Part shown: one piece after another, positions 2,512-61,507 of the stretch
Layout of the letters: each line of letters opens with the position of its first letter
Position numbering within the stretch: the stretch's first letter is position 1
Source: Rhizophagus irregularis
Lineage: Eukaryota
Length of the DNA: 64,000 nt
Direction of reading: 5' to 3'
Assembly (NCBI RefSeq): GCF_026210795.1
Contig: NC_089430.1
Span: 3,782,001-3,846,000 of the forward strand
The notes under the pieces: generated by a model
Seen by the model: the letters and a program-made list of their open reading frames with translations, nothing else
Told to the model about the DNA's origin: nothing
Database searches by the model: none
Made by a program: the position numbers and the translations under genes

Positions 2512-3472
2512 TAATGATTTAGCACTACGAAATATTTTATTATGTTATTAATGATATAATGTCATTGATAATTTATATTTGGTAATTGAATGATTTATAA
2601 ATATTTATGAGATTAGAGAAGTGAATTGTAAAGATGACCAATTATATAATTGTGAAAAACTCTTTGTCTAGTTATGAAATAGATAAAATTGTTTATTGAA
2701 ATTAATTTTATATATCAACTTATTTTTGTTAGAAATGAAATTTTTTTACAGAAAAAACTGTAAATAATTATTAGTTAACATGCATGATCGTGAATTTTAT
2801 ATTATTTAGATTAAAATTCCTATCTTTATCATCTGAAAACATCATAGCGGCTATTTATCTTTTCATCTTCGGAAAATCATACCTACAGTTCTCGAAAAAA
2901 GTAATCGGAATTACAAAATGTGTAAAAATAGAAACCCAGTGATTAGACTTTCTTCAAATTTTGTAAGATTGTTGTCAAATATGTTATACATTATATATAT
3001 TAAATTTCAGCCCTCTATTGTCTTTTGATCGATTTTTTTTAATTTGAAAAAAAAGCGATCAAAATTTAAGCTGTAAATATAAATAATTTTTAATTAAAAT
3101 TGAATAATCATAAATTTAAGTTTATTCTATGTTAGTTTTATTAAAAAAAATTGGTTGCCGAGAAAAATCAAATTCTTCAAATTCTTTAGTTAAAAGAATT
3201 AAAATTCATATATAAAATGCAAAAATTATAAAAATTATAAAAGATTTTTATAAATATATTTAATATTAGATTTATAATTTTCAATATAACAATATATACA
3301 AAAAATTCATCAAATCTAATGCACTTAAAAATTTTATTTATTATGAATATGTCAATGTCCGAGTAACAATATTGAAATTTAAAACGAATTTCTGACCCTA
3401 ATTTATCATGTGCTTAAATAAAATTGGTCATCCATGTAGATCATTAAACTTTAATCGCGTGTCTACCCAAGA

Positions 3473-34329: not shown

Positions 34330-34390
34330 TAGTTAAATTTTTTAAATTAAAATATCTTTTTATCTATTGATCCTAGAAATATAAAATGAC

Positions 34391-34620
34391 TACCATTTGA
34401 TGCGTCTTAATGAGAAGAATCTGATAGAAATAAAATTGTCCTTCTACAAATATTATGTGACAGGATAACTTATAAAATCTAAAATTTTATAAATTAATAT
34501 AACTTTTTATTTATCAATTTTAGAGTTATTATTTTATTACCATTAAATGCACCTTAATAAGAGAAATCTAACAAATATAATTTCATCTTTCTATGATCAC
34601 TAGATCTCAAGATATTTTAA
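34391..34620. repeat. Degenerate copies of the ~148-bp palindrome-containing repeat
   Basis: TACCATTTGATGCGTCTTAATGAGAAGAATC (34391) and TACCATTAAATGCACCTTAATAAGAGAAATC (34538) resemble the repeats at 47563/47710 with the same spacing. Confidence 0.55.
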
Positions 34621-38984: not shown

Positions 38985-39214
38985 CTTCTGGCCAATTAAA
39001 ATTTAACAATTTTTTATATATACAGTCAACTCCCTCTATAGTCACTATCACACCTATCCTCAAAAATCTTATATTAAAAAGAACCGTTTATAATCACAGT
39101 TATATAAAGAATATATTAAATAACTTGGCATCTAATAATCGTACAAAGATGTATCATAGCTTGTTAGAATCGTCTCACTGAGACGAATCGAATGGCGGTA
39201 GTTTTATCCTTTCC

Positions 39215-40187
39215 TTTCGCTATTGTTTACGGCCGTACCACCCATTGCCTCTTATGAGACTAATCTCGGTCCCGCGTCCTATCATCTTCAATAGGCAACC
39301 ATTAAACCGCACTTAATTCCTCAGGTAACAGCACCATGTAAGACATCCCCCATCGAGCCATTTTAGGCCGATCTGAAGCTGGTGACACGCCGCCTACTCA
39401 TCCTTAATCCATTGTACGATACTGGTACTCAATTTATTTTACGACCTTAGAGAGCACCTACTTTCATGGTGACTTTTGACAGGTAACGTCAACCATCTGA
39501 TGTAGGCCTAACCACTGGCATTTTAGGTACGGAGGTCGGCATCAATTACTGGCAGCCCGCGTCTAGCGCCGATAGTACATTGTTTGCCCACAAGTGGTAT
39601 ACTTATGTAGTGACCACTCGGACAGGAAGTAGCGAGGCTTCGTTCGGATGGCACCCCCTTATGGTGGGTATCGACCAGGAATCGCCAACGGGCCGAAGTG
39701 GAGGGGAATGACAACCCCCATGTATGCCTACCTGTGCGACGTGCACGAAGCACCTTGATTGGCTAAGGCCACAACAGAAGGTCTAACTACCACTAAGACA
39801 TTGCACCCTCAGCTTTACCATCTGTGACGACCATCTAGCCATTACTGACCCCAAGTGGTATCGTGCTGACCACCCAGACAGGAAGCCCCCCAAGGTATAG
39901 TAGCGACCTCCGCGACAGGACTGCGCACATGCCACGGGCCTCATAGCGAACGTTAGAAGGACACCACGACCCTTAGCTTGAAATGTGCGGCCTGACCGTA
40001 CACACTAATTCACCATGATGCAGTCCCAACTACACTAATCCCTGTACCTTCACGCTATTGGTTGTAGCGTCCGCAGTAAAATTCTTTTTTATTTCCGCTG
40101 GTCATAGGAATCGAACCTGCGACCTCCACCATACTCAGGCTTAATGAGGTCTCAGCGACTAACCACCGAGATAGGGCGACCAACCCT
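39215..40187 (-). mobile_element. tRNA-headed SINE-like unit 1 (divergent middle segment)
   Basis: Minus-strand head with GGTTCGATTCC B-box. Flanked by target motif copies at 39200-39214 and 40188-40202. Confidence 0.8.
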
Positions 40188-40202
40188 AGTTTTATCTTTT
40201 CC

Positions 40203-41067
40203 GCGTATTGTTTACGGCCAGACCACCCATTGCCTCTTATGAGACTAATCTCGGGCCTGCGTTCTATCATCATCAATAGGCAACCATTAAACCGAAAGAT
40301 TAATTCCTCAGGTAACAGCACCACGTAGAAGACATCCCCCATCGAGCCATTTTAGGCTGATCTGAAGCTAGTACACGCCGCCTACTCATCCTTAATCCAT
40401 TGTACGATACTGGTACTCAATTTATTTTATGACCTTTAGAGAAGACCTACTTTCATGGAGGACTTTCGACAGGTAACATCAACCATCTAGCACTTACATA
40501 CCACCATTTTATGTTAGCATTTGCGGTCTCACTCAAAGCGCCACTACAGCCCGCGATTACCTAGCACCGATAGTACAGTTGTTTACCCCAAGTGGTATAC
40601 TTACGTAGTGACCACTGACAGGGGAAGTAGCAGGCTTCTGTCCAGGATCACCCCTTATGGTGGTATCAACCACCAGGATCACCAACCAGGACCCAAGAAG
40701 TGGGGAATCGAACCCCATAACCATGCTACCTGTTCTGTGCACGAACACCTTGGTTGGCCTAAGACCTAACAGAAGGTCTAACTACCACTAAGACATTGCA
40801 CTCTCAGCTTTACCATCTAGGACGACCATCTAGCCATTACTGACCCCAAGTGGTATCGTGGAGTGACCACCCAGACAGGAAGTCCTCCCCAAGGTATAGT
40901 AGTGACCTCAAGGACAGGACTGCGCACATGCTAATGGCCTCATAGGAACGTTAGAAGGACACCATGACCCTTAGTTGAAATGTGCGGCCTAACCGTACAC
41001 ACTAATTCACCATGATGCAGTCCAACTACACTAATCCCTGTACCTTCACGCTATTGGTTGTAGCGTC
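40203..41067 (-). mobile_element. SINE-like unit 2, 5'-truncated (lacks tRNA head)
   Basis: Homologous to the other units but ends at GGTTGTAGCGTC, directly joined to the target motif at 41068-41083. Confidence 0.8.
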
Positions 41068-41083
41068 AGTTTTATCCTTTTCC

Positions 41084-42050
41084 TTTGCTATTGTTTACGG
41101 CCAGACTACCCATTGCCTCTTATGAGACTAATCTCGGGTCTGTGTCCTATCATCTTCAATAGGCAACCATTAAACCGAGACTTAATTCCTCAGGTAACAG
41201 CACCATGTGTAAGACATCTCCCATCGAGCCATTTTAGGCTGATCTGAAGCTAGTACACACCGCCTACTCATCCTTAATCCATTGCATGATACTGGTACTC
41301 AATTTATTTTACGACCTTTAGAGAGCACCTACTTTCATGGAGGACTTTCGACAGGTAACATCAACCATCTAAGCACCCTTCCATACCACTATTTTAGGTA
41401 CGAGGTCTCACTCAAAGCGCCACTACAGCCCGCGATTACCTAGCACCGATAGTACAGTTGTTTACCCCAGGTAGTATGGCTTATGTAGTGACCACTGACA
41501 GGAAGTAGTAGGCTTCGTCCAGGATCACCCCATGTGGGTATCAACCACCAGGATCACCAACCAGGATCCCAGAAGTGGGGAATCGAACCCCATAACCATG
41601 CTACCTGTTCTGTGCACGAACACCTTGGTTGGCCTAAAACCTAACAGAAGGTCTAACTACTACTAAGACATTGCACCCTCAGCTTTACCATCTAGGACGA
41701 CCATCTAGCCATTACTGACCCCAAGCGGTATCGTGCGACCACCTGCATATGCTCCCCCCAGCGCATAGAAACACCTCAGCGGACAGGACTGCGCACATGC
41801 CAATGGCCTCATAGTGGAACGTTAAAAGGACACCATGACACTTAGCTTGAAATGTGCGGCCTAACCGTACACACTAATTCACCATGACAGTCCAACTACA
41901 CTAATCCCCGTACCTTCACGCTATTGGTTGTAGCATTCGCAGTAAAATTCTTTTTTATTTTCGTGGTCGGGAATCGAACCTGCGACCTCACCATACTCAG
42001 GCTTACAATGAGCTTTCAGTAACTAAACACCGAGATAGGCGACCAACCCT
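41084..42050 (-). mobile_element. SINE-like unit 3
   Basis: Full-length copy followed by the target motif at 42051-42066. Confidence 0.8.
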
Positions 42051-42066
42051 AGTTTTATCCTTTTCC

Positions 42067-43032
42067 TTTGCTAATGTTTACGGCCAGACCACCCATTGCC
42101 TCTTAATAATTAATCTCAGGTCTTCATATTCTATCATCTTCAACGCAACCATTATACCGCACTTAATTCCTCAGTAACAGCACCACTATAGAAGACATCC
42201 CCCATCGGGCCATTATAGGCTGATCTGAAGCTAAGACACGCCGCCTACTCATCCTATACCCATTGCATGATACTATACTCAATTTATTTAACGACCTTTA
42301 GAGAGCATCTACTTTCATGGAGGACTTTCGACAGGTAACATCAACCATCTAAGTACCCTTCCATACCACCATTTTAGGTACTAAGTCTCATTCAAAGCGC
42401 CACTACAGCCCGCGATTACCTAGCACCGATAGTACAGTTGTTTACCCCAAGGGTATACTGTACGACCACTCGTACATGGTAAGTAGCTTCTCGTCCAGGT
42501 ATCACCCCTTATGGCGGTATCAACCACCAGGGATCACCAACCTAGATCGTTAAGTGGGGTCGAACCCCATAACTACGCTACCTGTTCTGCGCACGAACAC
42601 CTTGGTTGGTCTCGCACCTAACAGAAGGTCAAACTACCACTATGACATTGCACCCTCAGCTTTACCATCTAGGACGACCATCTAGCCATTACTGACCACA
42701 AGTGGTATCGTGGAGTGACCACCTGAACAGGAAGTCCCCCCCAAGGTATAGTAGTGACCTCAAGGACAGGACTGCGCACATACCAATGGCCTCGTAGGGA
42801 ACGTTAGAAGGACACGCACCCTTAGTTGAAATGTGCGGCCTAACCGTACACACTAATTCACCATGATGCAGTCCAACTACACTAATCCCTGTACTTTCAC
42901 GCTATTGGTTGTAGCGTCCGCAGTAAAATTCTTTTTATTTCCGTGGTCATGGGAATCGAACCTGTGACCTCACCATACTCAGGCTTAATGAGGGTCTCAG
43001 TGACTAACCACCGAGATAGGGTGACCAACCCT
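42067..43032 (-). mobile_element. SINE-like unit 4
   Basis: Full-length copy followed by the target motif at 43033-43048. Confidence 0.8.
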
Positions 43033-43048
43033 AGTTTTATCCTTTTCC

Positions 43049-43552
43049 CCTGTACAAACAGTCTTATGACTTTATCTTTTATTTATACTTTGAACTTCGA
43101 AAATATAATCGAACAATATTACAAAAATAAGAAAATAAACTAATAAAAAATAAAAAGAGTAGCTTCACGATTCATACAAGTAAAGAAATCTAAACTAAAA
43201 TAAAATTAAAGCAAAGAAAAACTGAACTATTACAGAATCGCATACCCCAACTTTACCCAAAGGCCAGTGCTGAGTCAACTATCCAACATCCAAAAATCCA
43301 GTCCGTTACCAGAAAGAAATCCTAAGAGGTTGAACTGTTAAGCGGCGCAGAAAATCCAAGTGCGAGATCCAAGATCCACCCCGAATTATAGAAGAGAATA
43401 TCCAAGAAATCCAGGAATCCTGAGAGACTGACGCCAAAGAAGAGTTGTGTTGTTGTGAAGAAGTAGAATTAGGAGAAGCATTTGTAGATGGGCCACGTAA
43501 TTTGGAAGCAGCCGAGATACCCTGCGACTCTTCCCAAGCATGGAAAAGAACA
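43049..43552 (-). mobile_element. LINE 3'-terminal fragment (~500 bp)
   Basis: Near-identical to 53130-53630 (3' UTR plus ORF2 C-terminus ...SWISHLDF). Confidence 0.88.
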
Positions 43553-43821
43553 CACTAGCAAGCTAGTCGAATTAATCTTTAACCGAAGTTTTATGTGTAA
43601 ATTCTGGCTGACATAAAATGTTGTAAAATTTTGTAATTCAATAGAGTAAATTCATCAATCGCTAAAGCGCTGTATATAAATTTCTGATACAGAATGATAA
43701 AATTTGTATTCATAAAGAAAGAGGAAAGGAAATAGGAAAGCTTAAAATAAGCATGAAAAAAATGAAGTGTAAAAGGAGAATAATAAAAGGAAGGTAATTA
43801 ATTAATAAGAAACCAGCGCAA

Positions 43822-46145
43822 TTAGCGCATTAAAAAAACAGGATGAACAAAATCAGCGGGTAATTCCCACGATGTTCGGAAATCAGAAGGAGCAGGGTAA
43901 GGATGTGAATCAAACCAAGGTGCACAAACATCCAATAACATTAAGATATCACAAGGTTTAACACGACCTAGTTTGAAAGAAAACCGTGTTTCACTATTCC
44001 AAAGATGTGAAAATGTCGAAGAGGAAGCCGATTTGGTGATAACAGATTGAATGGCATCTCGAAGATACTTCTTTGATACCGAGGAAGTATTGTGCTTGGA
44101 AATTAATAACCAAAGGAAATTGTAGAAGAGGTACATAAATGAAGCACTATTCGAGAGTATCCTTCAGGACTATATCAATAATGGAACGACTAAAGCCAAG
44201 AGTTTTGAAATCTTGATAATCAATAGCAGGGCAGTTCGGACCAACAAAAGGACCAGAGGTGGGTTTGTCAGTGATAAAATGACTTGCAACTACAGAAGAG
44301 GGATTCAAAACCACTTTTTGGATAGAACCTGTAAACTTAGAAGACACGAACGCAACAGAAGATTGATGTGAACGTTCTTTTAAACAGAAGGAAACGTCAG
44401 GACGTGAGGATACAAGATTACGTATATTCTGGACAATTGAGTAATCAGTAGTAGACATAGTCAAATTATAGGAGGTAGGAGGAATGACTATAGCAGGATC
44501 CTTAGTGGCCATCCACATAGAAGAGTCAAGAAGATCGGGGTGAACAACATGTCGTGAAAATTTGCTCCGGTCTGATAAAAGGTCTTTACGCGTACTTCGA
44601 CGAGCAAGTTGTTTCTTCGTAGGGTGGGAGATAGATTTGTGAGCAGAATATGAGATAAGAGTTCGGGCAGAGAGTGAACCACTGTCGTCTCAAGAACATG
44701 ATGGAAAGCATAGGATTTGCGGTAGGAAACTCCTAGACGTCGGGAAGTAACGTCTTTATAAAAACCATCAGCGTGTCTTTTAGACACACGATTACAAGGT
44801 AAAGCGAAAGGAGGACAAGGAGGAGGGGAAGGAGTGTGAACAAGTTTTTTGTCATGAATATGACAAGCATGCGAAATGAGACATAACATAGGCAGCACGA
44901 GTCTTGCAAAACGGGCAACCAAAATAAAGGCCAAGGTAAAAACAAGATTGTTGGTATCGAAATTGAATAAAGGTACGAGAAGACGTCTATTATTACGATG
45001 AGAAGATGACCAACGGGCAAGAGAGGTAACCCGTTGTGTTAATAAAAGCTGGCGTAACCTATTAAAATATTTACGTCGAGCATGGGAGGGAATACGGTTT
45101 TGTCGGTAAAAGAAAAAGGTTAAAAATTTTGATAAAATAAATTTCAAATTAGGAGAAGGGCGGTCAGATGTAAATTGAAATGGATCCATAGTTGAAAGGA
45201 GAGGAGAATTGGTATGAACTGAATAACAATTATCCGAATCAGGAGTGGGGTCCAAAAGAAAGTAACAGTTGCCTCGGCGAATAGAATATAAACGGTTAGA
45301 GCTAACATTTCGAGCAGGACGTATCCGTCCATCCAAGATGGTACGTATTGTGAAAGTGTAAGATGAACACTGTACATTATCATGAAGAAGATGGGCTGAA
45401 GTAGAAGTTGCCGGTAAAGGTTCCGCAGGTGTACAATTCAAAGAAAGGACTGGAGAAGGGACGTTAATGTCATAATCAGCAGTATCTTCTGAAACTGAAA
45501 TTCGGGGAGTAATAAGAGAGGAGTCTAGGAATGTATTTTGAAAGGGACTTATAGGTTCAGAAGGACGTGATAAAGGTGGAACCAATAAACGTATTGTAGA
45601 AGGAGATAAAACCAGACGCGTAAAAGACAATTTAGTCTTAATTTTCTGTGCGCGCTTAAAAGATGCAGGGGAAATCATAGAGGATACGCGTTTACAAAGA
45701 AATTTATGAGTACGCCGTGAAGGGCGTAAACAATTGGTGCGTCGTGTAGAAGGGGTACGATAAATCTAAGATGAGATTAGGATCAGCCTCGTGTTTAGAA
45801 GCCCAAATAGCTAATGGAAGAGGAGGTAGATTATCAATCAATGGATCATCATGTGATTGATGATCGTCAACGAGGGGATAGCGAAATCCTTTTCGAATCC
45901 GCAGTAGACGAAAGAGTAGCAAATGCAAGTGTAAAAGGCGTTTTTGTTCAGAAAGAGATCATCTACATGAGCGCCAAAAGCGAGTAAGCACGTGACTTGG
46001 CGAAGAGTTATCAGGAAGAGAGTTGTAACGAGCAAAAAGAGTTTCTTGTTTAAGGGCGCACTTAGCGCGAAGGTCCTCAACTTCGCGAAGTTTGGAAAGA
46101 ACTTCATCCCAACTCAAGGTTGAGAAGTCGTGAGAAGAGGCCATA
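43822..46145 (-). pseudogene. Degenerate long ORF of unknown function (~770 codons with stops and frameshifts) joined to the LINE 3' end
   Basis: Consecutive minus-strand ORF pieces from MASSHDFSTLSWDEVL to ...ELPADFVHPVFLMR*. No introns evident; includes a CPFC...CHIH cluster. Confidence 0.6.
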
Positions 46146-46292
46146 GGCCAGAATAAGAATAGAAAAGATAAAAATAAAAGAAAAAGTAATAAAAAACTTT
46201 GGAAAAAAAATTTTTTATTTTTATGTAAATAATGTCGTGAGGGCAACGGGAGAGAGTTCAGTTTTTAGTTTTTCCTAGTTTTATCCTTTTCC

Positions 46293-47263
46293 TTTGCAAG
46301 TGTTTACGGCCAGACCACCCATTGCCTCTTATGAGACTAATCTCTGTGTCCTATCATCTTCAATGGGCAACCATTAAACCGAGTACTTAATTCCTCAGGT
46401 AACAGCACCACATAGAAGACATCCCCCATCGGGCCATTTTAGGCTGATCTGGAGCTAGGTACACGCCGCCTACTCATCCTATACCCATTGCATGATACTG
46501 ATACTCAATTTATTTTACGACCTTTAGAGAGCATCTACTTTCATGGAGGACTTTCGACAGGTAACATCAACCATCTAGTACCCTTCCATACCACCATTTT
46601 AGGTACTAAGTCTCACTCAAAGGCCACTACAGCCCGCGATTACCCAGCACCGATAGTACAGTTGTTTACCCCAAGTGGTATACTTTGTAGTGACCACTCA
46701 GACAGGAAGTAGCAGGCATCTGTCCAGGATCACCCCTTATGGTGGGTATCAACCACCAGGGATCACCAACCAGGACCCAAGCGAGAAATCGAACCCTATA
46801 GCCATGCTACCTGTTCTGTGCACGAACACTTTGGTTGGTCTAAGACCTAACAGAAGGTCAAACTACCACTAAGACATTGCACCCTCAGCTTTACCATCTA
46901 GGACGACCATCTAGCCATTACTGACCCCAAGTGGTATCGTGGAGTGACCACCCAGACAGGAAGTCCCCCCGCGGTATAGTAGTAACCTCAGGACAGGACT
47001 GCGCACATGCCAATGGCCTCCATAGGGAACGTTAGAAGGACACCATGACCCTTAGTTGAAATGTGCGGCCTAACCGTACACACTAATTCACCATGATGCA
47101 GTCCAACTACACTAATCCCCTGTACCTTCACGCTATTGGTTGTAGCGTCGCAGTAAAATTCTTTTTATTTCCGTGGTCATGGGAATCGAACCTGCGACCT
47201 CACCATACTCAGGCTTAATGAGGGTCTCAGTGACTAACCACCGAGATAGGGTGACCAACCCTT
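46293..47263 (-). mobile_element. SINE-like unit 5
   Basis: Full-length copy between target motifs at 46277-46292 and 47264-47279. Confidence 0.8.
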
Positions 47264-47410
47264 AGTTTTATCCTTTTCCGATCACTGGCTGACGAGTTAT
47301 TCAACAAAATGTTAAACATCGGCATTATAATATTTCTTGATTTACGTTTACTGCGCCATTTAACATTTTGCTAGATTTCTCAGTACCTAGTGATTGTAAA
47401 AAGACGATTT

Positions 47411-47790
47411 ATAGCTCGTTGGAATCGCCTCATCGAGACGAATCGAATGGTGGTAAGCTCATCTCTCTATGATCAATATATTGACGGAGTTATTACTTAA
47501 AAACTATTTAATATTTTTTAATTTCGGAAATTGATCTAGTGATTGGATTTCAATGTATCTTATACCATTAGATTTGTCTCATCAAGACGAATCGAATGGT
47601 AGTAAGATCGTTTTTCTAGGATCAATATTGGCAGAGTTATTATACAAAAACCATTAATATTTTTTTAATTTCGGAAATTAATCTAGTGATTGGATTTCGA
47701 CGTATTTTATACCATTAGAACCGTCTCATCAAGACGAATCGAATGGCGGTAAGATCATCTTTCTACGATTAACATTGGCAAAGTTACGAT
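47411..47790. repeat. Three ~148-bp internal repeats with long palindromes (host copy 1)
   Basis: TACCATTAGA(T/A)...GTCTCATCAAGACGAATCGAATGG at ~47563 and ~47710, with a variant at ~47420. Confidence 0.8.
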
Positions 47791-48214
47791 ACAATAAAGT
47801 TTTAAGTATAATTCTGGCTAAAATTATGTTAATTTTTGGCCGGAATTATGACATACAAATATAAGAAATTTTTTATATAGTCACATCTCTTTATAATCAC
47901 CAAATATGGACTGTCCCAAATGTGTGACTATAAAGAGAGTTGACTGTATATATGAATTATTTTGTAAAATTTAAATAGCAATTTATAATATTTTTTTTAT
48001 TTATTTAACTTTATAATTAATAGAATTTCATATCAATTTAATTTTATTTAATTATATTATATAATAAGGGGAGTTACATATATTACGTAATATTCATTTT
48101 AATATAAACTTACTCCCCTCTCCCCTTTGTCAGATTTAATAACCAATCAAATTATAATATTTATAAATTATATATTTTATTAAGTGTAACGTAAAATTTT
48201 GGTTACCCTCCTCC

Positions 48215-51200
48215 TATACATGCGGGTGAATTAGGATTAGGTGATGCCAAAATATTACGGCAGTGTAATGTATTACACCACAAAATGTCAAAATGAGTTA
48301 CACTACCGTAATGCCAAATTGGCGAATTGACGAAATGAATTACACTGTCGTAATGCCGAATTGATGAATTGACGAAATAAATTGCACTGCCATAATGCCG
48401 AATTGACGAAATGACAAATTGCCAAATTGCCAAATTGATAAAATAAATTATACCGTATTACCGTTGAATTGCACTTTATTAAAATCATTAACTACTTTTA
48501 ATTATTTACTTCAAATAATTTTTATCAAATTATAAATCTTTATCGCATAAGTTTATAATATATAAAAGCAGTACAAAAAAATTTATTATATATAAAACTA
48601 CTACTCAGAAAAAAACTATTACAAATTACCTATTTTAAAGAAAAACAAAAAAAAATACTACTGTAATTACTGCGTTTCATTTTCTTTAGTGCTATTAACT
48701 TTAGCAAGAATATCATCTACATTAAATTTCATTTCACCATGATCAATTTTTTCAGGTTCCATTTCTTCCTCAGACCTCAGTATGATTTAATTTAATCAAA
48801 TTACCTACTATTAAATCTGAATCATCTTCGGTTAATTGATCATTATTTCCTTCTTCATCTTCTGGAACCAAATTTTCAAAAGGATCATTATCATTTTCTA
48901 TTTCATTAATAAACATATCTGAATCTGAAGTAAGTGAATTAGTATAACTTTGCATTATTTCACTAAAAGCGTCATCAGATAGATTTTTGCCAACATAATT
49001 AAGTTCTTGTTGTGCATTCAAAATATAAAATGAATGCAATCTTGCCATATTGGATACTTTTTCCACTTTAAGTCTAATAAATATAAAAAAGAATTTAATA
49101 AAAAAATATAAATTTTAATAAAATAAATATTCTATGAATATACCTGCTTCGTCTTTTTTGGGTAAACCAATTTAATACTGAGAAAACACGCTCACAGCTT
49201 GCACTATGAGGAACAATAGAAAGAATATATAAAGCCAATTCTTGCAAATAATGATTTGATTGTTTACATCCTAACCACCATGATTGGGGAGTTTGAAGTT
49301 CGTCAATATAAGGAAAATTATAAGGAGACTTAAAATCATCATAATTATTCATTTGAACAGCAAGTGTAAATGCTGATTTTAATCCTCCGCCCATTTTTGA
49401 CCATAAGGCAAAAGCTTTCCTTTGGATTAGTAATTGATAGGTTTTAGGTATAAATCCTTTTCCGCGAAATTTTGGATGCAAAAAATATGCTAGTAAATAT
49501 AATTCATGATCAAACTGCTTCCATCTATTATTATAAAATTGAATGCATTTTTGCCGAAACTCTTTTAATTCTTCAGTACTTTCAGTAGATAAAGCCTTGA
49601 TAGCAGTAGCCATTTGAATGAGAGCCAAAAAAACATCAGCCATAGTTGCATTTTTACCTTCAATACTCTTCACAGCATTTTTTGCAGGTTCTAAAATAGT
49701 TGTAAGACTTTCAACATTCAACCAAAAATTTCGATTATTTACTAAATTTTGTAAAGTTTGATTCATTGCTTTAGAATCAGCAATTAACATCTAGAAATAT
49801 AATAATAAAATATTTAATAATTTGACATTAACTTAGAAATTAACTACAATTTCACTTACATTTTTGAAAATAGTTTCTAAACGTAATACTGATGTACAGC
49901 AATCCCAAGCAGTACTCCATCTTGTTTTAACCGAACTTTTTAATCTACCTCCAACAATTAACTCTTTTTTGATTTTTTCACGAAGAGTAGCTCCAGATTG
50001 ATGTGACTCAGCAAAATAAGTAACAAATTTCTGACAGTTAATAAGTATATTATTTGAAAATGGATTTTTTTTCATAATATCAGTACAAATTAATTGCACG
50101 TGATGAGCGATACAACGGACTGGCAAAATTTTAGGATATTCTTCAGATATTAATCTCTTAGCTAATTGCATAGCACTAGCATTATCCGACACTACTGAAG
50201 AAAAACGCTGTGGGCCTATATCTTTAAGGACTTTCTTTATTTCTTCTGCTGTAAAAAGACCAGTGTGAGAGTTTTTTGAACAGTCTTTAACTTTAATTAC
50301 ATATTCTTTTCGTTCAGGAGTAATTATAACAAAAGAAAAATAAGAATGATGGTTGCTACTTGTCCATCCGTCTAACACTTAATATTGAAATAAAAATAAT
50401 ATTAATATTTATTGGAGATATAATAAATAAAAAAAAATTATTTACCAAGTGAAAGATTTTCTTGTTTTTTAAGTATTTCTTCAACATCAACGGTAATTCT
50501 TGCCACTTCATTACTAAGCCAAGTATCACTTAATGTTTTCCTGTCTGGCAATTGATAACTAACGCATAAATTCATTACAAGATCAATAAAGAATGGACTT
50601 TCTACAGTAGAAAAAAGGACGCCACAGCATACAAAAAATCTAGTCAATGCTCTATTACAAAGATATTGTTGTCCAGGATCTATTGCTGATTTTTGTAATT
50701 TAGATGTGATTTTTGGTTGAATTCCAGTTGCAATTTCTTCATTAAGTTTTCGCTTCCTTGTAGTAATTCGACCAGAAGATTGCTCATTATTTTGTGCAAG
50801 AATTCTGAGATATTGTTCTTTAACTGAAGCTTCAACTTTTTCACATTATAATGCTAAATGTGCCATCATATCTGGAACTCTTCCTCTGTTCCAAGCATCG
50901 CCACAATATACACAAGTACTAGGTGAGTGGCCAAATTTTCTAGCTTCCTCTTCAATAAAATAATTCCATATATCATTTTTTTTCTTGCCAGGCTTCTTGA
51001 ATTCTTCAGTTTCCGGAAGATCTGATAATTCTACAAAATTTAGATCTTGAAAAGATCTTGTTTCATCAAGAGAATCTGTTTCATTAGCCATAATTTCTCT
51101 TTAATTAACTTTTGTAATAGAAAATTTGAAAAAAAATAGCATGCGAAAACTTTTTCCGATAAATATTGATCAACCTGATTACATTTTAGCCAATCATTAA

Positions 51201-52546: not shown

Positions 52547-53129
52547 CCCTCCCCCCCTTTGATAATTACATAATATCTGTAAGCTTCCTAATTGAAACAT
52601 AGAATTTTTTATAATCATAATTATTTTTATTATACACTGTATTAATTAATTTAACTATATAAATTTATATTAGAAAATACATTATTAGTTAATTAATAAT
52701 ATAATTTGTAATTAGATAGTATAATAAAACAATGCAATAAATTTTTATATTAAAAAAAAATTTTAATTAACATTTTGTTTTGATTGTTTTATGTATTTTC
52801 TAATAAAATATTAGTGTTTTTCAATTAAAAATACAGTCAACTCCCTCTATAGTCACTCCCGTTATAGTCACATTCTACTATATAGTCACACCAGTTGAAT
52901 GTTCAAAACACTTTATTATTAAAAACTATCCTATATAGTCACAATCTATCTATAGTCACTATCACACCTATCCTCAAAAATCTTATATTAAAAAGAACCG
53001 TTTATAATCACAGTTATTTAAAGAATATATTAAATAACTTGGCATCTAATAATCGTACAAAGATGTATCATAGCTTGTTAGAATCGTCTCACTGAGATTA
53101 ATCGAATGGTGGTAGTTTTATCCTTTTGC

Positions 53130-55523
53130 TGTGCAAACAGTCTTATGACTTTATCTTTTATTTATACTTTGGATTTCGAAAAGTAATCGAACAATATTAC
53201 AAAAATAAGAAAATAAACGAATAAAAAATAAAAAGAGTAGCTTCACGACTCATACAAGTAAAGAAATCTAAACTAAAATAAAATTAAAGCAAAGAAAAAC
53301 TGAACTATTACAGAATCGCATACCCCAACTTTACCCGAAGGCCAGTGTGAGTCAACTATCCAACATCCAAAAATCCAGTCCGTTACCAGAAAGAGATCCT
53401 AAGAGGTTGAACTGTTAAGCGGCGCAGAAAATCCAAGTGCGAGATCCAAGATCCACCCCGAATTATAGAAGAGGATATCCAAGAAATCCAGGAATCCTGA
53501 GAAACTGACGCCAAAGAAGAGTTGTGTTGCTGTGGAGAAGTAGTATTAGGGAAAGAATTTGTAGATGGGCCACGTAGTTTGGAAGCAGCCGAGATACCCT
53601 GCGACTCCTCCCAAGCATGGAAAAGAACATTCCGATACAGCCAAATTTCACCATATAATTCGACTTGGAAGTCATTAAGAAGGGGAGAAATAATCTTGTA
53701 TATAACAGAGAGAGGAAAGTATTGATTCAAAAATGCCGTTAAATGCGCAGGCAACAATCCTCGAGTAAGCCAAAGACAGGATGAAGAAGGAGCTTCATAG
53801 TTCCAGCAATCCAAAGCAAAGAATGCAGTATGAAAGGAATTATCCAAAGATTTCAAGGATAAGAAAGAAGATAAACAAGAATCTCTAAATTTAATGACTT
53901 CAGACCGGTGTGTTAAACAGGGATTTAAATCTGGTAAAATATAAGGACAAGTCCAAAGATGATTCAAATCTTCAGGAGCAGAATTACACTGCGGACAGAG
54001 CCAGTCAGGAGAATATAAGTAAGGTTTACGTTGTTGAAGAGTAGTTAAGGTAGGCAACATATCCAAAAGAAGTTTAATGCGGAAGATCCAAAATTCAGGA
54101 CGACCATTCCTATGTGAAACAAAACCTTTAATTTGTGAAAGGCAAAAATATATACCAGCCCAATCAAAAAGTGAAGGAGAACCAAGAGCAGTAAAACGCG
54201 CTAGTGAACAGAAAGATAAGAGAGCACGAGCATCTGCAATAGAGCGGAGAAAATGTCGAATATTCACGTCAATAGGCAGGGAGTTAAAGGTCAACAAGCA
54301 TGGAGCATAACAAAATGTCGAAAGTAAAGTAGTGGGTTGTAAAGACGAATGAGCGTCTTTTGCCAAAGAATCCGCTTGTATATTGTAAATATCATCGCCA
54401 TGAGCAGGGACTTTAATCAATTCGACATTAAGATTACGGTCCATGATAAGTTGTCGAATAAAAAGCCAAAGAAGATGATTAGGTTTTCGGAGCAACCTCG
54501 GTGAGAAAGGAGCATCAACAAACCGTGTCCATAGTGAAATTAACTGACTACAATCAGTATGAACAGAGATTGACGAATTACGGGAAAGGGCATTCAGTCC
54601 TAACAGGACAGCAGAAATTTCAGAACGCAAAGCGGAAGGAAAGTAAGAAGGGAGATGCATGGAAGAAGATTCCAGAACAAGTCCAACATCATCAAGAGCG
54701 ATCCAAGCAGAAGTCATGGAAGAAGGCGAAGAATCATTGGCATGATGGAACGAACCATCTGTGTACAAAGATTGCACCGAAAGTGGTAAAATAGTGTCTT
54801 CAATTCTATCGATACTATCCTTAAAAAGAGGAGAAAGAGCGAGAGACGCGTTCGAAAAATGAACAAGAGCCAAGGAGGTTGCATAACTCCATGAAGTAGA
54901 TAGAGTAATGGGAAGATAAGCCGCGAAAACTTTGGCATTTCTGGTAGGATAGCCCACAGTATCCGATAGGGTTACATTAAAAAAGCATTTCTCGCTATTA
55001 CAGCGTTGTCTGATGGCAGATTTCATGGATAAGGCGGGAATGTTAAGAGCACAACCGGGACAAGGGTTATAGGATCGTTCATCAGCCGAGGTAGATACAG
55101 GAAGCCAATGAGACATAATAGCCGAGTTTTGTTTCTTATAAGTGATACACACACGACCAACAGATAAAGTTTGAGTAGCAGAGTCAAGAGTAATAACCCA
55201 TTGAGGATAAAAAGAATAATCTTTAACAGTATGATCTAATAAACAAGGAGAAGCTAAAGTAAAAGAAGAATTAATAAAATATGAAGATAAAAGTAAAGTA
55301 GAAGAAGAAGAAGAGAGAAAATTATTATTGATAAAAGTAAACCAATTAGGGATCCGTCCTTTACGACCAACGATGCCAAGATAACGAAGGTCAGGCCAAT
55401 TCATAAGATAACGTCCACAAGGAGAAACCAACTGAGCAAGCACAAATATATTCAGGTTTTTCCAAAGTTTCCAACTCGATTGAAAAATGGAATGAGGTAG
55501 AATAGATCGGAGTGGCAGAGCAG
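53130..55523 (-). mobile_element. 5'-truncated non-LTR retrotransposon with 16-bp TSD
   Basis: AGTTTTATCCTTTTGC at 53114-53129 and 55524-55539. Encodes RNase H and a C-terminal zinc finger. Confidence 0.92.
53383..55443 (-). CDS. LINE ORF2 C-terminal part: RNase H plus CCHC zinc finger (RT lost by truncation)
   Basis: LYTDGS, SALRSEISAVLLGL, VHTDCSQLI, KVPAHGDDIYNIQADSLAK and CPQCNSAPEDLNHLWTC. Confidence 0.88.
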   Translation of the reverse strand: MLAQLVSPCGRYLMNWPDLRYLGIVGRKGRIPNWFTFINNNFLSSSSSTLLLSSYFINSSFTLASPCLLDHTVKDYSFYPQWVITLDSATQTLSVGRVCITYKKQNSAIMSHWLPVSTSADERSYNPCPGCALNIPALSMKSAIRQRCNSEKCFFNVTLSDTVGYPTRNAKVFAAYLPITLSTSWSYATSLALVHFSNASLALSPLFKDSIDRIEDTILPLSVQSLYTDGSFHHANDSSPSSMTSAWIALDDVGLVLESSSMHLPSYFPSALRSEISAVLLGLNALSRNSSISVHTDCSQLISLWTRFVDAPFSPRLLRKPNHLLWLFIRQLIMDRNLNVELIKVPAHGDDIYNIQADSLAKDAHSSLQPTTLLSTFCYAPCLLTFNSLPIDVNIRHFLRSIADARALLSFCSLARFTALGSPSLFDWAGIYFCLSQIKGFVSHRNGRPEFWIFRIKLLLDMLPTLTTLQQRKPYLYSPDWLCPQCNSAPEDLNHLWTCPYILPDLNPCLTHRSEVIKFRDSCLSSFLSLKSLDNSFHTAFFALDCWNYEAPSSSCLWLTRGLLPAHLTAFLNQYFPLSVIYKIISPLLNDFQVELYGEIWLYRNVLFHAWEESQGISAASKLRGPSTNSFPNTTSPQQHNSSLASVSQDSWISWISSSIIRGGSWISHLDFLRRLTVQPLRISFW

Positions 55524-55671
55524 AGTTTTATCCTTTTGCGATCACTGGCTGATGAGTTATTAAACAAAATGTTAAGCATCGGCATTATTATATTTCTTGA
55601 TTTACGTTTACTGCGCCATTTAACATTTTGCTAAATTTCTCGGTACCTATGGATTGTAAAAAGACGATTAA

Positions 55672-56050
55672 TAGCTCGTTGGAATCGCCTCATCAAGACG
55701 AATCGAATGGTGGTAAGCTCATCTCTCTGTGATCAATATTGACGGAGTTACTACTTAAAAACCATTTAATATTTTTTAATTTCGGAAATTGATCTAGTGA
55801 TTGGATTTCGATGTATTTTATACCATTAGATTCGTCGCATTAAGACGAATCGAATGGTAGTAAGATTGTCTCTCTAGGATCAATATTGGCAGAGTTATTA
55901 CACAAAAACCATTAATATTTTTTTAATTTCGGAAATTAATCTAGTGATTGGATTTTGATGTATTTTATACCATTAGAACCGTCTCATCAAGACGAATCGA
56001 ATGGCGGTAAGATCATCTCTCTACGATTAATATTGGCGGAGCTACGATAC
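55672..56050. repeat. Three ~148-bp palindrome-containing repeats (host copy 2)
   Basis: TACCATTAGATTCGTC-GCATTAA-GACGAATCGAATGGTA at ~55821, with related copies at ~55680 and ~55968. Confidence 0.8.
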
Positions 56051-56307
56051 AATAAAGTTTTGAGTATAATTTTGGCTAAAATTATATTAATTTTTGGCCG
56101 GAATTATGATATACTAATATAAGAAATTTTTTATATAGTCACATCTCTTTATAATCACCAAATATGAGGATCATCGCAACTCTTTCCTGAATTTTTGAAA
56201 ATACTAATAAAAATTTATTTTTGAAATTTTCGTTCGAAAATTTCTAAGTGCTCGTTCAAAATACTAATATCTTCCCAGTTGCTTTCCTCTTTACTGAGCT
56301 TTAAACT

Positions 56308-58422
56308 ATGACTACACCTCCAGCTCCTTCTGTTATTAACCCAGATATTCCACCGCCATCGCGTCCTGTTGTTTCTACTCCCTCTGGAGACCGACCTTTA
56401 TCTCCCACTAGTACCGCTGGCGCACCTAATAAACGTACGCGTACTGTCTCTGATGACGCGATGAATGTTGATATAACTTCGCCCTCAGCTCCTGCTCCCA
56501 CCCATACTTCTACCGTTCCTTCTGGTCTTCCTGTCAACAAAGTCCAAGTGCTTACCTCTCTTCATAATACTACTACTCCTGTTGAAACAGTTGACGCTTC
56601 TATCCATGCCCCCTCTAACACCGATGGTAAAGGCAAAGCTGTTGCCTTTGATATCCCAGAACGCCAACCATCCCCCGATGGTAATACCGCCGCTATCAAA
56701 TCTGCACCATCTCGTTATCATGCTGCGGCTTATTTACGCGATGTGCCTGACGCGTTCAAAGCCAAATTCACCACCAATCGCTCCATGTGTGATGAAGTGG
56801 ATTGTTCACTCTTCCGATATTCCTCCTATGGCGCTCGCGCACGCTGCGATGAATCAGGTGATAACAAAAAGATCCTTGTCTTCTTCTATAATCAGCATGA
56901 TTTTACCGATTGTGTCAGCTCCCCACGTGCAGATCTTCTCGATTTAGTCTTCACTCATTATTCCCCTGCAGATGTTAAACTCAGCGACGAAGCGAAGTCT
57001 TTGTTTGTCACTGACATCCCACTTTTCCTAAACGAGACACAAGTCCGCCAGGCATTTTCCCGATATGGTACTGTGATCAAGTGTAAACTCACCCCTAAAA
57101 AACATTACTATAATGGTCATATCCAATTTTCCTCTGCGGATGCAATTACCCAATTTAACGATATCTGAATGATCATTTGCCTAGGTAATTCCTTACGTGT
57201 CTGTTCGGCATCTTTCTCGAAATCCCAACGTGATAGCCAAAGAGAACATGTCACCATTCTTGCCGGGATTCCAAAAAATATAAAAGAAGCTGACCTTTTA
57301 GAAATTGCTACTCAAGTCAACGCTAAAGCCCTTAATGTCCCCCTTTCTATTAATTCTTATAAGCCCAAACCTTATGTGTATTTAAACTTCTCTTCGTTTG
57401 ATACCCTTGAGGCGGCGAAATAGTTATCTGTGGCTTTCCGCGGCAAAGGTTTAACATGGCACCCTCCTAATGAAGCTCACACTTTATGTCATGTCTGTGG
57501 ACGTTCAGGTTGCTCCCCTTCTGTATGTAACCCTCGTCCCGCACACAAAGTGGATGATCGCCTTAACAAACTATATTCACGCTTTAATGCTGGTCCTCAA
57601 CGTGGTCATCAGGATTCGCACCCATCACATGATACATCCAATTCCCGCTCAAGATCGAGATCCACCTCTAGATCCCGTAATAATTCGTCCTCATCCAGAA
57701 CCAACAACACTAATAATAATCTTAACACTTCTCGTCCCAATGTTCCTAACTGTAGCAACCAGTTCAATAACAATAATACCGATTCTAGGAACAATGCAAA
57801 TTCTTCTGGTTCTACCCAATCTCCGCACACTCTTCATCCTAACAATACTACATCTACTTCTCTGAATAACAACCTTAATTGTACGCTTCCTCAACACATC
57901 ATTGATGAGTTAAAGGCGCAGATCAAAAAGATAGCTATCACCCTCAATACTCTAGAGGAAACTGTCTCTTGGATGAATGATACTATCACAGCCCATGAGT
58001 ATAGGCTATCTGAACTTGAATCAATGATGAATTATGACAACCCTGGTGACTCTGATTTGTATCCGCCTCGTGATGATCATGAAAATCAAAATCATTCTTA
58101 TGATAATGGATGGGATGATGCTCCAACCCAAGACACAAATTCTGGATTCAATCTTCCTCCCCATACTTCCCCTTCTCTTATGGACACTTCTCCTGATGCA
58201 TCCTTTTCAGCTCTGGACCCTAACTCCATCTTATCACGAAGACATGTCCCCTTACCTAACTCCCGACCTACTATTATTACCCCCGATGCTAATACTTCCC
58301 GTCTGCAATTGGAAATTTCTAATGTTACTAATACGCAAAAGAATCTTTCTGCCCAACTTGGTTCGATTATGGAAAAATTGGACTCCTTCTCTCCCTCAAA
58401 ACCCTCCCCTTCCAATGATTGA
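56308..58422 (+). pseudogene. LINE ORF1 (RRM domains plus Cys/His knuckle-like motif), two in-frame stops
   Basis: LFVTDIPLFLNETQVRQAFSRYGTVIKC (RRM), second RRM-like region YVYLNFSS, CHVCGRSGC. Stops at 57166 and 57421 in one frame. Confidence 0.8.
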
Positions 58423-59413
58423 ACACCATTTTATATTGGGTGTTTCACAGGGATTTCACCCCCCTGATAGTGCGATACCTAATAATATCAATAATCCTAA
58501 CAATTCTTCTTTTTCTTCTTCCCCTCTTATTAATTTTGGACAAATCAATGTTAATGGTTTGTGCTCCCCTGTTCGTCAGCTGCATTTGTTAAATTATTTT
58601 CTCCATTCTTCTTTTGGCGTTTTATCTTTAAACGATACTCGTCTTACTTCTTCTAGTGCTAAATTTATTTATCAAAATGAACATTCCCAGTATAATTTTA
58701 AGTCCTATTGGGCTCCTTCCCCTTCTAATTCACGTCCTTATGATGGTGTTAGTCTTTTGCTTCGCCATCCCTTACATAAACATGTTCAGAAAATTGATCC
58801 TTGGAAAGGTCGTCTTTTAAAATTGGATCTTTTTTTCCATCAAACAAAAATTTCTATCATTTCCGTTTATATTCCTCCTTATCATTCTATTCATTACAAA
58901 GAACGTGATGCTATTTTTGCACAACTCAATTTATGGCTTGATAAAGCCCGTTCTAATAACTATCACGTTGTCATTCTTGGTGACTTTAATGCAGATGAAT
59001 TTTCACATTCACATCTTCCTCAACATCATTTAAAAATTTTGCGATCACTTTCTTTTTGATATTTTACGGATCATCAATCCCATATTTCTTCAATTTCAGG
59101 TCCTAGTCCTACCTTTTATTACCAAAATGGTTCTTCAAGACTTGATTATATTTGGTCATCCCCTGGATTTCCTGCTCCCGGTCTTTTCTCTCATGTTGAA
59201 TCTTGTCCTAAGCTAAATGATAATCAATTTACTGATCACCGTGTACTCTTTACGGCCTTTGACTTTAGCTCATGTTTCGCTACTTTATCCAAAGCTAGAT
59301 TAAAACAGAAAAGCGAACAACGCACCATTTTTCTTTATAAGAATTTAAAAGAAGATACTTGAGACACCTTTTCTAATGAAGTTAATTCACGTCTCGAGTT
59401 ATATTTGGCCACA
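58415..59413 (+). pseudogene. LINE ORF2 N-terminus: APE-type endonuclease
   Basis: INVNGL, LNDT, DGV, SVYIPP, ILGDFN, SRLDYIW and FTDH. The ATG overlaps the ORF1 stop; stops at 59057 and ~59360. Confidence 0.88.
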
Positions 59414-61507
59414 CACCCTATAAAAAATATGTATACAGTTTTTATACTGTATATACGTATTTTTGATACAGTTTGCATTTTTACATACGGCATATCAGTA
59501 TAATGTATACTGTTCGCAAAATGTGCTTAGTAAAAAATACAATAAAGTATACGGTAAACATACTGTGTGATACGGTATATTAAATTCATACGTCTATAAC
59601 GTATATCATTTCTACTGTATATCAGTATTTTGTATACGGTTCACAAAAATATTGTAAATAAAGAATACGGTATACGTATTATTCTACAGTATATTAAAAT
59701 TCATACGTTTATAACGTATTTTCTACAGATATACACAGGTCAAATAAATAAACATCAGATTTTTGCCCTTTTTAATATGGCTGTCTGATTTTTTTGGCAA
59801 TTTTAATATAATATTTCCGATTTTAATAAATATTTCTGATTTTAATATAATATTTCTGATTTTTAACATGAAATTGCCGATTTTTGGTTATTTGTAATAG
59901 GATTTTTCGATTTTAATATATAACATGTGATTATGTATTACGGTTTAATATTTATTTATTAACTTAGATTTTTTTTTTATTTCAGTTATAATTATTTTTT
60001 TGCCTTTTTTTCTTAAATATAAATACATTTAAATTAAATAACTCATAATTTAAAATATAAACAAATATTATATTTTTTTACATATATTTCAAAGTATAGT
60101 TTGAGCATTTTGGCTGAAGTAAATCTTATTCTTTTAATTAAAAGTAGTTTAGTAAGTTTAAAACTGTTAAGATCATAAAAGTACAGTTAATATTTTTGGA
60201 ATTATTTACATTTTTTATATTATATAGTAGTATTAAATTACAAATTTTTTTACCTTTAGAGCGTATTTTGAGATCTTTAGCCAAAGTAAATCAACTTCTT
60301 ATATTAATTGTAAGTTGTTCGGCAGGTTAAAATCTACTTGGATATTAATTTTCACGAAGGTACAGTTAATACTTGATGAGTTATTTACAATTTTCACAAC
60401 AGTACTCATTCACGACTTTTATTTTTTTCATTTTGTCACTTCAGAGCGTATTTTGAGATCTTTAGCCAAAGTAAATCAACTTCTTATATTAATTGTAAGT
60501 TGTTCGGCAAGTTAAAATCTACTTGGATATTAATTTTCACGAAGGTACAGTTAATACTTGATGAGTTATTTACAATTTTCACAACAGTACTCATTCACGA
60601 CTTTTATTTTTTTCATTTTGTCACTTCAGAGCGTATTTTGAGCACTTTATCTAAAGTAAACCAACTTCTTATATTAATTGAAAGTTGTTTAGCATGTCAA
60701 AATCTACTTGAATATTAATTTTCACGAAGGTACAGTTAATACTTGATGAGTTATTCACGATTTTCACAATGGTACTCATTTACGAATTTTATTTTTTTCC
60801 GTTTTGTCACTTCAGAGCATATTTTGAGCACTTTAGTCAACGTAAATTGACTTCTTTTATTAATTGAAAGTTGTTTAGCATGTCAAAATCTACTTGAATA
60901 TTAATTTTCACGAAGGTACAGTTAATACTTGATGAGTTATTCACGATTTTCACAATGGTACTCATTTACGAATTTTATTTTTTTCCGTTTTGTCATATTT
61001 TGAGCACTTTAGTCAAAGTAAATTGACTTCTTTTATTAATTGAAAGTTGTTTAGCATGTCAAAATCTACTTGGATATTAATTTTTACAAAGGTACAGTTA
61101 ATACTTGATGAGTTATTCACGATTTTCACAACAGTACTCATTTACGAATTTTATTTTTTCCATTTTGTTACTTCAGAGCGTATTTTAAGCACTTTAGCCA
61201 AAGTAAATCGACTTCTTTTATTAATTAAAAATTGTTCAGCAGCTTAGAATCTACTTGAATATTTATTTTAATGAAGGCACAGTTAATATTTGTGGAGTTA
61301 TTAATTTTTTATAATTGTGCGTATTACATTAAATTACAAGTAAATTTATATTCTTAATGTATTTTGTTTAAAATTTAATTATTTAAGATTAGTTTTTTAT
61401 TTAATATTGCTTAATAAAATATTTTTTAAATTTTAATTCAATATTACAATATAATTTTTTATAAAAATATATATTTCATAATGTATATACAATTTTTTTG
61501 TATAGTG
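59414..61507. mobile_element. Possible CAC-terminated non-autonomous DNA element
   Basis: Begins CACCCTATAAAAAATATGTATACAG. Weak inverted match ending ...GTATAGTG at 61507. Dense TATAC(G/A/T)GT subterminal repeats at 59430-59720. No TSD seen. Confidence 0.35.
60095..61310. repeat. ~185-bp tandem repeat, about 6.5 copies
   Basis: AGAGCGTATTTTGAG... unit starts at about 60258, 60443, 60628, 60814, 60995 and 61175. Confidence 0.92.

Follow-up and report, generated by a model that had tools for sequence, protein, structure and literature searches.

Introduction

In crocodilians, the retroposon SINEU-3 and the LINE Tx1-Mar occupy the non-autonomous DNA transposon Mariner-N4_AMi with a 16-bp duplication and in tandem copies, and 313 of 347 copies are flanked by the host element according to the available parts of the description (PMC4494074). 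The same source cites the insertion of Tx1 of Xenopus laevis into the non-autonomous piggyBac element Tx1D. SINEs themselves are usually short. SINEBase, as far as its accessible text goes, comprises 175 families of 75-662 nt, defines SINEs as shorter than 700 bp and applies a working rule of less than 1 kb (PMC3531059). Long SINE-like elements have been described in fungi, namely Egh24 of Blumeria with 884 bp (PMC10648671) as well as Eg-R1 with 657 bp, mgsr1 with 800 bp and MgSINE with 472 bp (PMC10648671, PMC5063351), all taken here from partial texts. For Rhizophagus irregularis, a curated transposable element library contains a SINE order classified with TEclass, for which the accessible part of the publication gives no SINE sequence, length, head or target (PMC11075540).

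Here, a 64-kb stretch of R. irregularis DNA (the window) was analysed, in which an initial annotation had described an unusually long, tRNA-headed SINE-like RNA as a Pol III read-through product. Copies, boundaries and insertion sites of this element, its promoter-like and structural features, its neighbours and its traces in sequencing runs and protein databases were analysed and compared with the described systems.

Copies and boundaries of the SINE-like element

Five copies of the element, 89.2-94.7% alike in pairwise comparison, were found in the window:

46293..47262, minus strand, SINE-like copy 1, 970 nt, full length
42067..43031, minus strand, SINE-like copy 2, 965 nt
41084..42049, minus strand, SINE-like copy 3, 966 nt
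40204..41066, minus strand, SINE-like copy 4, 863 nt, 5'-truncated, without the head
39216..40186, minus strand, SINE-like copy 5, 971 nt, most diverged

The unit runs from 47262 to 46293 on the minus strand and has a length of 970 nt. The ends given in the initial annotation (46293..47263) were right to within 1-2 bases, base 47263 being part of a flanking motif, and every motif named there was found at its place on the minus strand; the other four copies, the flanking duplications and the host MITE described below had gone unmentioned. The four full-length copies span 965-971 nt.

The GC content of copy 1 is 0.48, compared with 0.28 upstream, 0.38 downstream and 0.31 in the whole window, so the body is GC-richer than its flanks, as had been noted. 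The absence of a conserved ORF was likewise borne out: no ATG-initiated ORF of at least 40 aa was detected on the sense strand of copy 1, no ORF is common to all five copies, and no ATG-initiated ORF exceeds 55 aa. Like a SINE, the element is non-autonomous and has no coding capacity. A poly(A) or simple-repeat tail was not found on it.

Mean identity to the other copies is highest for copy 1 (93.8%), which lies next to the long arm of the MITE, and lowest for copy 5 (91.2%). This gradient is loosely consistent with newer copies having entered at the motif that lies furthest 5'; the copies in between do not follow the order. The neighbouring copies 2 and 3 are 90.8% identical and the non-neighbouring copies 1 and 2 are 94.7% identical. 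Database matches to the element are spread over many contigs, and copies are often stacked. In sequencing run X7 the summed contig depth over the element was about 600-3,550 versus 8.6 for the 5' part of element A (see below), a depth that is not to be equated with copy number.

A duplicated target site inside a host MITE

Every copy is bounded by the same motif of 15-17 bp, and nine of the ten motif matches in the window lie exactly at element junctions, with 0.77 matches expected. The following motifs were assigned:

47263..47279, minus strand, target motif (duplication) 5' of copy 1
46276..46292, minus strand, target motif at the junction of copy 1 and element A
43032..43048, minus strand, target motif at the junction of element A and copy 2
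42050..42066, minus strand, target motif at the junction of copies 2 and 3
41067..41083, minus strand, target motif at the junction of copies 3 and 4
40187..40203, minus strand, target motif at the junction of copies 4 and 5, with 3 mismatches
39199..39215, minus strand, target motif 3' of copy 5
53113-53129 and 55523-55539, motifs flanking a LINE in MITE B

The motif is a duplicated target site inside a MITE, of which two loci (A and B, the latter at 52834-56166) are present in the window:

39023..39198, short arm of host MITE A, with terminal inverted repeat at 39023-39045 and TA outside
47280..47946, long arm of host MITE A, with ~147-bp internal repeats, terminal inverted repeat at 47924-47946 and TA outside
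52834..53112, short arm of MITE B, the second MITE copy
55540..56166, long arm of MITE B, cut at 56166 by another LINE

Read along the minus strand, locus A consists of a MITE arm, the motif, copy 1, the motif, element A, the motif, copies 2-5 arranged head to tail and each followed by the motif, and the other MITE arm. The host MITE has 23-bp terminal inverted repeats, is bordered by TA on both outer sides and, without insertions, has a length of about 860 bp. On either side of the motif, MITE A and MITE B are 94-95% alike. TA flanks point to the Tc1/mariner superfamily, and the host MITE may accordingly be of Tc1/mariner type, a label that rests on these flanks, with no transposase linked to it.

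The second base of the motif follows the locus, as it is G in seven of seven cases at locus A and C in two of two at locus B. The last bases of the SINE-like element are similar to the first bases of the motif, which blurs the edge of the duplication, hence given as 15-17 bp, and the motif after the 3' end may in part be the element's own tail. The insertion site falls in a diverged unit of the ~147-bp repeat of the MITE. In these internal repeats (47430-47800 and 55680-56050), a 14-nt word agrees with a 9-nt B-box pattern at eight of nine positions and would be a conceivable place for TFIIIC to bind and guide insertion.

Additional repeats were observed around the MITE copies. A 72-bp piece at 34365-34436 is 81% like the MITE internal repeat and has the opposite orientation, and pieces of a hAT-like transposase (DUF659 and a weak match to the hAT dimerisation domain) are located between the MITE copies at 48770-50845 on the minus strand.

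Insertions at the same site beyond the window

Among the joints listed for sequencing run X1, at least six link internal positions of the SINE-like element (46531, 46533, 47149 twice, 47181 and 47221) to positions 47263-47265 of the MITE, and at least three link the 5' end of element A to the MITE site; each of these joints is a single contig with 20-29 letters on the shorter side. The consensus of loose ends at place 47455 of the same run reads flank, one motif, flank, corresponding to an empty site, and was built from 14 contigs with a median loose length of 13, only some of which are long enough. In run X7, which carries a different organism label, six contigs leave the 3' end of the element into the MITE flank.

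Moreover, 24 database proteins (P0031 and P0125-P0147), 23 of them named R. irregularis, begin with or contain the translated 3' part of the element. Fourteen read through to its 3' end, and in all 14 the translated motif comes next. It is followed by the MITE flank in two proteins, by a SINE-like copy with head or truncated in four, by a truncated LINE in three, by element A in three, and by an unassigned stretch and by a stop in one each. The other ten, which exit the element earlier, probably at predicted splice sites, were dropped from this count. As the protein sample is biased to open frames and comes mostly from one strain, and the query included the translated motif, the counts indicate a strong preference for the site and not a measured rate. 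The 24 entries are likely annotation artefacts, that is, spurious translations of the repeat; seven of them carry a variant stretch that may be the mark of a subfamily. Duplication, 5' truncation and a fixed 3' end, the marks of target-primed insertion that belong to a SINE, are thus all present.

LINEs and element A at the target site

The site is also occupied by other elements, listed here together with a second LINE and with a short hairpin near the 3' ends:

53130..55522, minus strand, 5'-truncated LINE with RNase H domain, at the same site of MITE B between two motifs, candidate partner family
43049..46275, minus strand, element A, a multi-copy repeat of ~3.2 kb whose broken ORF belongs to no Pfam family and whose terminal part corresponds to the final ~500 bp of the RNase H LINE, likewise inserted at this site
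56167-59420, plus strand, second LINE with RRM-like ORF1 and endonuclease, directly after a 16-nt stretch of MITE B and in opposite orientation
46327..46334, minus strand, 8-nt hairpin top close to the SINE-like 3' end, found again near the LINE 3' end at 43062-43069 and 53141-53148

The LINE in MITE B is 98% identical over 107 aa to P0081, which contains an APE-type endonuclease and a reverse transcriptase domain. All 84 homologues found for the neighbouring LINE protein carry the name Rhizophagus irregularis, with identities of up to 89-98%. Extended homology between the 3' ends of the SINE-like element and the LINEs was not found by BLAST, and the element therefore has neither of the 3' ends expected of a SINE, a simple-repeat tail or an end shared with a LINE. 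The 8-nt hairpin top occurs in four of five SINE-like copies (absent from copy 2) and at both LINE ends, with ten matches in the window versus 4.6 expected, and is only suggestive of a tie between SINE-like element and LINE.

Element A occupies the same MITE site at other loci as well. It has 40 homologues, which are named R. irregularis or R. diaphanus or are unnamed, and in one of them (P0085) a C2H2-like Cys/His pattern was read by eye. A protein atlas search for element A gave a best score of 0.77, below lead level. Element A may be derived from a LINE, as a non-autonomous form that has captured an ORF.

The 16-nt stretch in front of the second LINE is a second target site in the same MITE. 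In twenty poly(A) reads this stretch is joined to the 3' end of a LINE (place 47893), and the second LINE is related to the first with 68% identity in the endonuclease. Because related LINEs use this second site, the partner family of the SINE-like element is named as a candidate only. Past the truncated LINE, a ~185-bp tandem array (60067-61308) and a 92-bp array of palindromic units (61811-62110) were observed.

tRNA-like head and putative Pol III signals

The following features were located in or related to the head:

47173..47260, minus strand, tRNA-like head of copy 1, span of a weak Rfam tRNA-Sec match with 15.2 bits
47238..47248, minus strand, A-box-like word with 2 mismatches to the consensus, alone not significant
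47182..47192, minus strand, B box/T-loop, exact match to the 11-nt pattern
46785..46800, minus strand, site of a second B box/T-arm hairpin, decayed in copy 1 and intact in copies 2-4 (42566, 41589 and 40714)

The 11-nt B-box consensus pattern occurs seven times in 64 kb, all seven inside the copies and on the minus strand, with at most 0.002 occurrences expected per copy. It is present exactly at position 71-72 of all four full-length copies. The A box, relative to its consensus, has two mismatches in three of the four full-length copies and more in copy 3.

The tRNA head proposed in the initial annotation finds weak support in the exact B box at the 5' end of all four full-length copies, set against a poor fold (folding z -1.3) and the Rfam scores. 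When heads were scanned singly, the best tRNA-clan matches, which the proposed Infernal/Rfam search did return, reached 15.2 bits in copy 1, 13.1 in copy 2 and 24.5 in copy 5 (E 0.0033 in a hand-chosen 116-base window), below the cut-off of 47. ARAGORN reported no tRNA over the whole window, and Rfam yielded neither a functional tRNA gene or other family above its cut-off nor a significant match outside the head; U1 or U2 snRNA matches were absent from the heads at E up to 10. A 7-nt head loop with AAG in the anticodon position offers a lead, and only that, to Leu. Comparison of the head with phage DNA gave only matches of 19-33 bases at E 0.3-3 over the T-arm region, and an assignment of the tRNA isotype from them was rejected, as among the 15 listed three lie on tRNAs of three different kinds.

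The sense strand of the element is free of T5 runs, as had been stated, and this has no weight as an argument for read-through, since 66-80% of 500 dinucleotide shuffles per copy are also free of them. T4 occurs at about position 105 in all four full-length copies. Downstream of copy 1 the first T5 is reached after 83 nt, and downstream of copy 5 after 136 nt, there in the MITE; from copy 2 to copy 5 there is none. Budding yeast Pol III terminates weakly at T4 and efficiently at T6 (PMC9278858, accessible part).

Duplications and predicted folding of the body

The body contains internal duplications and a predicted long-range helix:

46924..46964, minus strand, internal ~43-nt duplication, unit 1 (86%, E 5e-8)
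46668..46710, minus strand, internal ~43-nt duplication, unit 2
47060..47084, minus strand, predicted 25-bp long-range helix, 5' strand
46299..46323, minus strand, predicted long-range helix, 3' strand, near the 3' end of the element

A weaker internal duplication of 130 nt (63%, E 1e-4) was also found. The predicted helix pairs element positions 179-203 with 940-964. In copies 1 and 2 it scores better than all 100 shuffles, and in copy 4 better than 94 of 100; in copies 3 and 5, whose best score is attained by 35 and 23 of 100 shuffles, it is not significant. Across the copies 20-23 of the 25 pairs hold, no pair is changed on both sides, and the helix is broken at extra positions. The whole-length folding z is about -3 in copies 1 and 2 and -1.3, -0.6 and 0.05 in copies 3-5, respectively. 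When the five copies were folded jointly, covariation contributed an unfavourable term (+10.2), and local folding windows were mostly not significant. A selected structure of the body is, on these predictions, possible. The suggestion of the initial annotation that the extra sequence may have a function found no support, the body having internal duplications and lacking covariation. The length of the element likely derives from captured and duplicated pieces, including the second T-arm/B box, and not from a host function.

Two identities of the body were tried and given up. A-box-like words number 6-8 per copy versus about 2 in dinucleotide shuffles (p 0.000-0.018, the copies not being independent). 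The excess shrinks with 4-mer shuffles (p 0.01-0.09), and profile searches for a head-like module in the body returned nothing above the reversed-sequence control except the 43-nt duplication, so that an origin from decayed tRNAs was not upheld; a five-piece alignment of the body was uninformative. Likewise, an RNase P/MRP or ribozyme identity has no Rfam support. A metagenome scan with a 17-nt word gave 68 loci, and the matches were treated as chance because only one reached 24 aligned bases, at E 2.7.

Traces of transcription

Part of the element is present in 20 of 24 listed sequencing runs, six of which are RNA runs from six studies that contain 43-49% of its words; for five of these (X16-X20) the evidence is word sharing only, reads having been mapped for four of the 24 runs. 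RNA run X15 contains an 843-nt contig over 46438-47252 at a depth of 51, with a depth of 0 on the MITE arm; in runs X1 and X7 the MITE arm is deeper than the SINE-like element. This single contig, which carries no strand, start or end, fits a discrete transcript. In poly(A) raw data the element is scarce: only 225 of 11 million records could be placed anywhere on the stretch, in both directions, and 77% of them run on into other sequence. Among the up-regulated transposable elements of R. irregularis in Table S4 of PMC11075540, of which a part was available, SINE is the most frequent class and MITE the second or third.

Proposed mechanism and alternative explanations

Taken together, the element is a ~970-nt non-coding repeat at one duplicated MITE site and probably a tRNA-headed SINE-like retroposon, with probable transcription by Pol III and probable insertion through the endonuclease and reverse transcriptase of a site-preferring LINE. 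Its classification as a SINE-like retroposon in the initial annotation gains from evidence not cited there, namely target-site duplications, 5' truncations and many loci. It is called SINE-like and not a SINE because two features used in SINEBase are lacking, a length below 700 bp and a simple tail or LINE-derived end; its 965-971 nt do lie below the working limit of 1 kb.

According to the proposed mechanism, Pol III would start at the head, pass the T4 at about position 105 and run through the T5-free element to a T run in flanking DNA, for example the MITE T run 136 nt past copy 5; such read-through transcription is plausible. A LINE protein would nick the MITE site and prime on the 3' end of the RNA, an end similar to the beginning of the target; target-primed reverse transcription would then copy the RNA. 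Every insertion would duplicate the site and so renew it, and later insertions would therefore stack head to tail.

Four other explanations were considered. The element could be a site-specific non-autonomous retroposon transcribed by Pol II that reads through from the MITE or adjacent LINEs, its tRNA likeness being a relic. Sub-threshold tRNA scores, a weak A box and poly(A) reads that mostly continue into other sequence suit this explanation, as does the flank-driven transcription proposed for SINEU (PMC4494074, accessible part). However, an exact B box has been kept at the 5' end of every full-length copy, and the X15 contig ends some 10 nt short of the predicted 5' end, the MITE being free of contigs, although contigs cannot show starts and gaps in coverage prove little. 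Pol II read-through is therefore regarded as rather unlikely. Tandem amplification of one old insertion by unequal crossing over or satellite formation, spread by MITE transposition with no repeated targeting, is very unlikely as the origin of the cluster: the 5'-truncated copy 4 begins cleanly at the motif, several truncation points join the same MITE position, that position has been taken by element A and by LINEs with different truncation points, and neighbouring copies are no more alike than non-neighbours (90.8% vs 94.7%). The head-to-tail order of copies 2-5, the ability of MITE copies to carry cargo and the existence of SINE-derived satellites (PMC10702118, accessible part) speak for amplification, and MITE hitch-hiking may add to the copy number.

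The helix that beats all shuffles in copies 1 and 2, the whole-length z of about -3 there, the RNA contig depth of 51 and the six RNA runs with 43-49% of the words would also agree with a gene for a functional, structured RNA of the RNase P/MRP, SRP or telomerase kind that has a tRNA-like leader and whose retrocopies fill the MITE. Such a gene is highly improbable in view of the missing Rfam match outside the head, the loss of helix significance in copies 3 and 5, the absence of two-sided pair changes, the breaks at extra positions, the weak folding of copies 3-5 and the unfavourable covariation term. A tRNA-bearing TRIM or solo LTR of the Helenus type can almost be dismissed. Helenus LTRs with tRNA-like sequence do occur in fungi, with tandem arrays in one family (PMC10886601, accessible part), but the duplications here measure 15-17 bp and not 4-5 bp, 5' truncations are combined with fixed 3' ends, no internal region lies between copies and the unit contains no long terminal repeats. 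The combination of two LTRs, a primer site, a polypurine tract and a 4-5 bp duplication that identifies a TRIM was not found.

An extension of the preferred reading, insertion of a Pol III-transcribed SINE-like retroposon by LINE enzymes, is speculative and on balance doubtful. It would assume a three-tier community in which the MITE serves as landing pad, Pol III terminator and stack carrier, the site-specific LINE provides the enzyme, and the longest tRNA-headed SINE on record yields an abundant ~1 kb RNA, whose body, closed by the 25-bp helix, would have been selected as a structure for loading the LINE protein or for protecting the RNA against host RNAi.

Significance and comparison with known systems

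If confirmed, the arrangement would extend the sharing of one site in a DNA transposon by a LINE and a SINE, seen in frogs and crocodilians, to fungi, and would stretch the size range of SINEs to ~1 kb, in a model mycorrhizal symbiont whose repeats are largely unclassified. The stacks are ordered insertion records that can be compared between strains, and for targeted insertion, a site-preferring LINE that moves a passenger of 1 kb offers a candidate tool. A practical consequence concerns annotation, as this repeat has likely given rise to at least 24 spurious protein entries in databases. In a search of mainly open-access literature, neither this family nor any fungal SINE targeted to a MITE was found to be described, and the accessible parts of PMC11952901 and PMC8647823 contain nothing on the family. 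An earlier consensus without a name is quite possible, and the family may already be part of the curated R. irregularis library.

With SINE2 elements the fungal element has in common a tRNA-like head with B box, a non-coding body, target-site duplications, 5' truncation and a length below 1 kb; it differs by its 970 nt, above the 75-662 nt range, by the lack of a simple-repeat tail and by clustering in one host element. The unusual length emphasised in the initial annotation is real relative to the SINEBase range and less exceptional relative to the 884 bp of Egh24. Like Egh24, Eg-R1, mgsr1 and MgSINE, which reach up to ~900 bp, the element is fungal, non-coding and multi-copy, whereas the accessible descriptions of those four, by which and not by sequences they are set apart here, report no target specificity. 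Insertion at one MITE site is a more notable property than length. Tx1 resembles the present system in that it has specialised in landing on a DNA transposon, but is an animal LINE for which no long tRNA-headed passenger is described in the text available.

By analogy of arrangement, the closest known system is SINEU-3/Tx1-Mar in Mariner-N4_AMi. In both cases a non-autonomous Mariner-type transposon (the label of the MITE resting here on its TA flanks) contains one target used by a non-autonomous retroposon as well as by a LINE, tandem copies sandwich the duplication, and 5'-truncated copies indicate independent insertion. In contrast to SINEU, with its head from U1/U2 snRNA, its poly(A) tail and, in SINEU-3, a far shorter length, the fungal element has a tRNA-like head, 970 nt and no poly(A), and is accompanied by a LINE with RNase H. 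The element of R. irregularis is a real, site-specific SINE-like family of ~1 kb in a fungus and a fungal parallel of the crocodilian arrangement.
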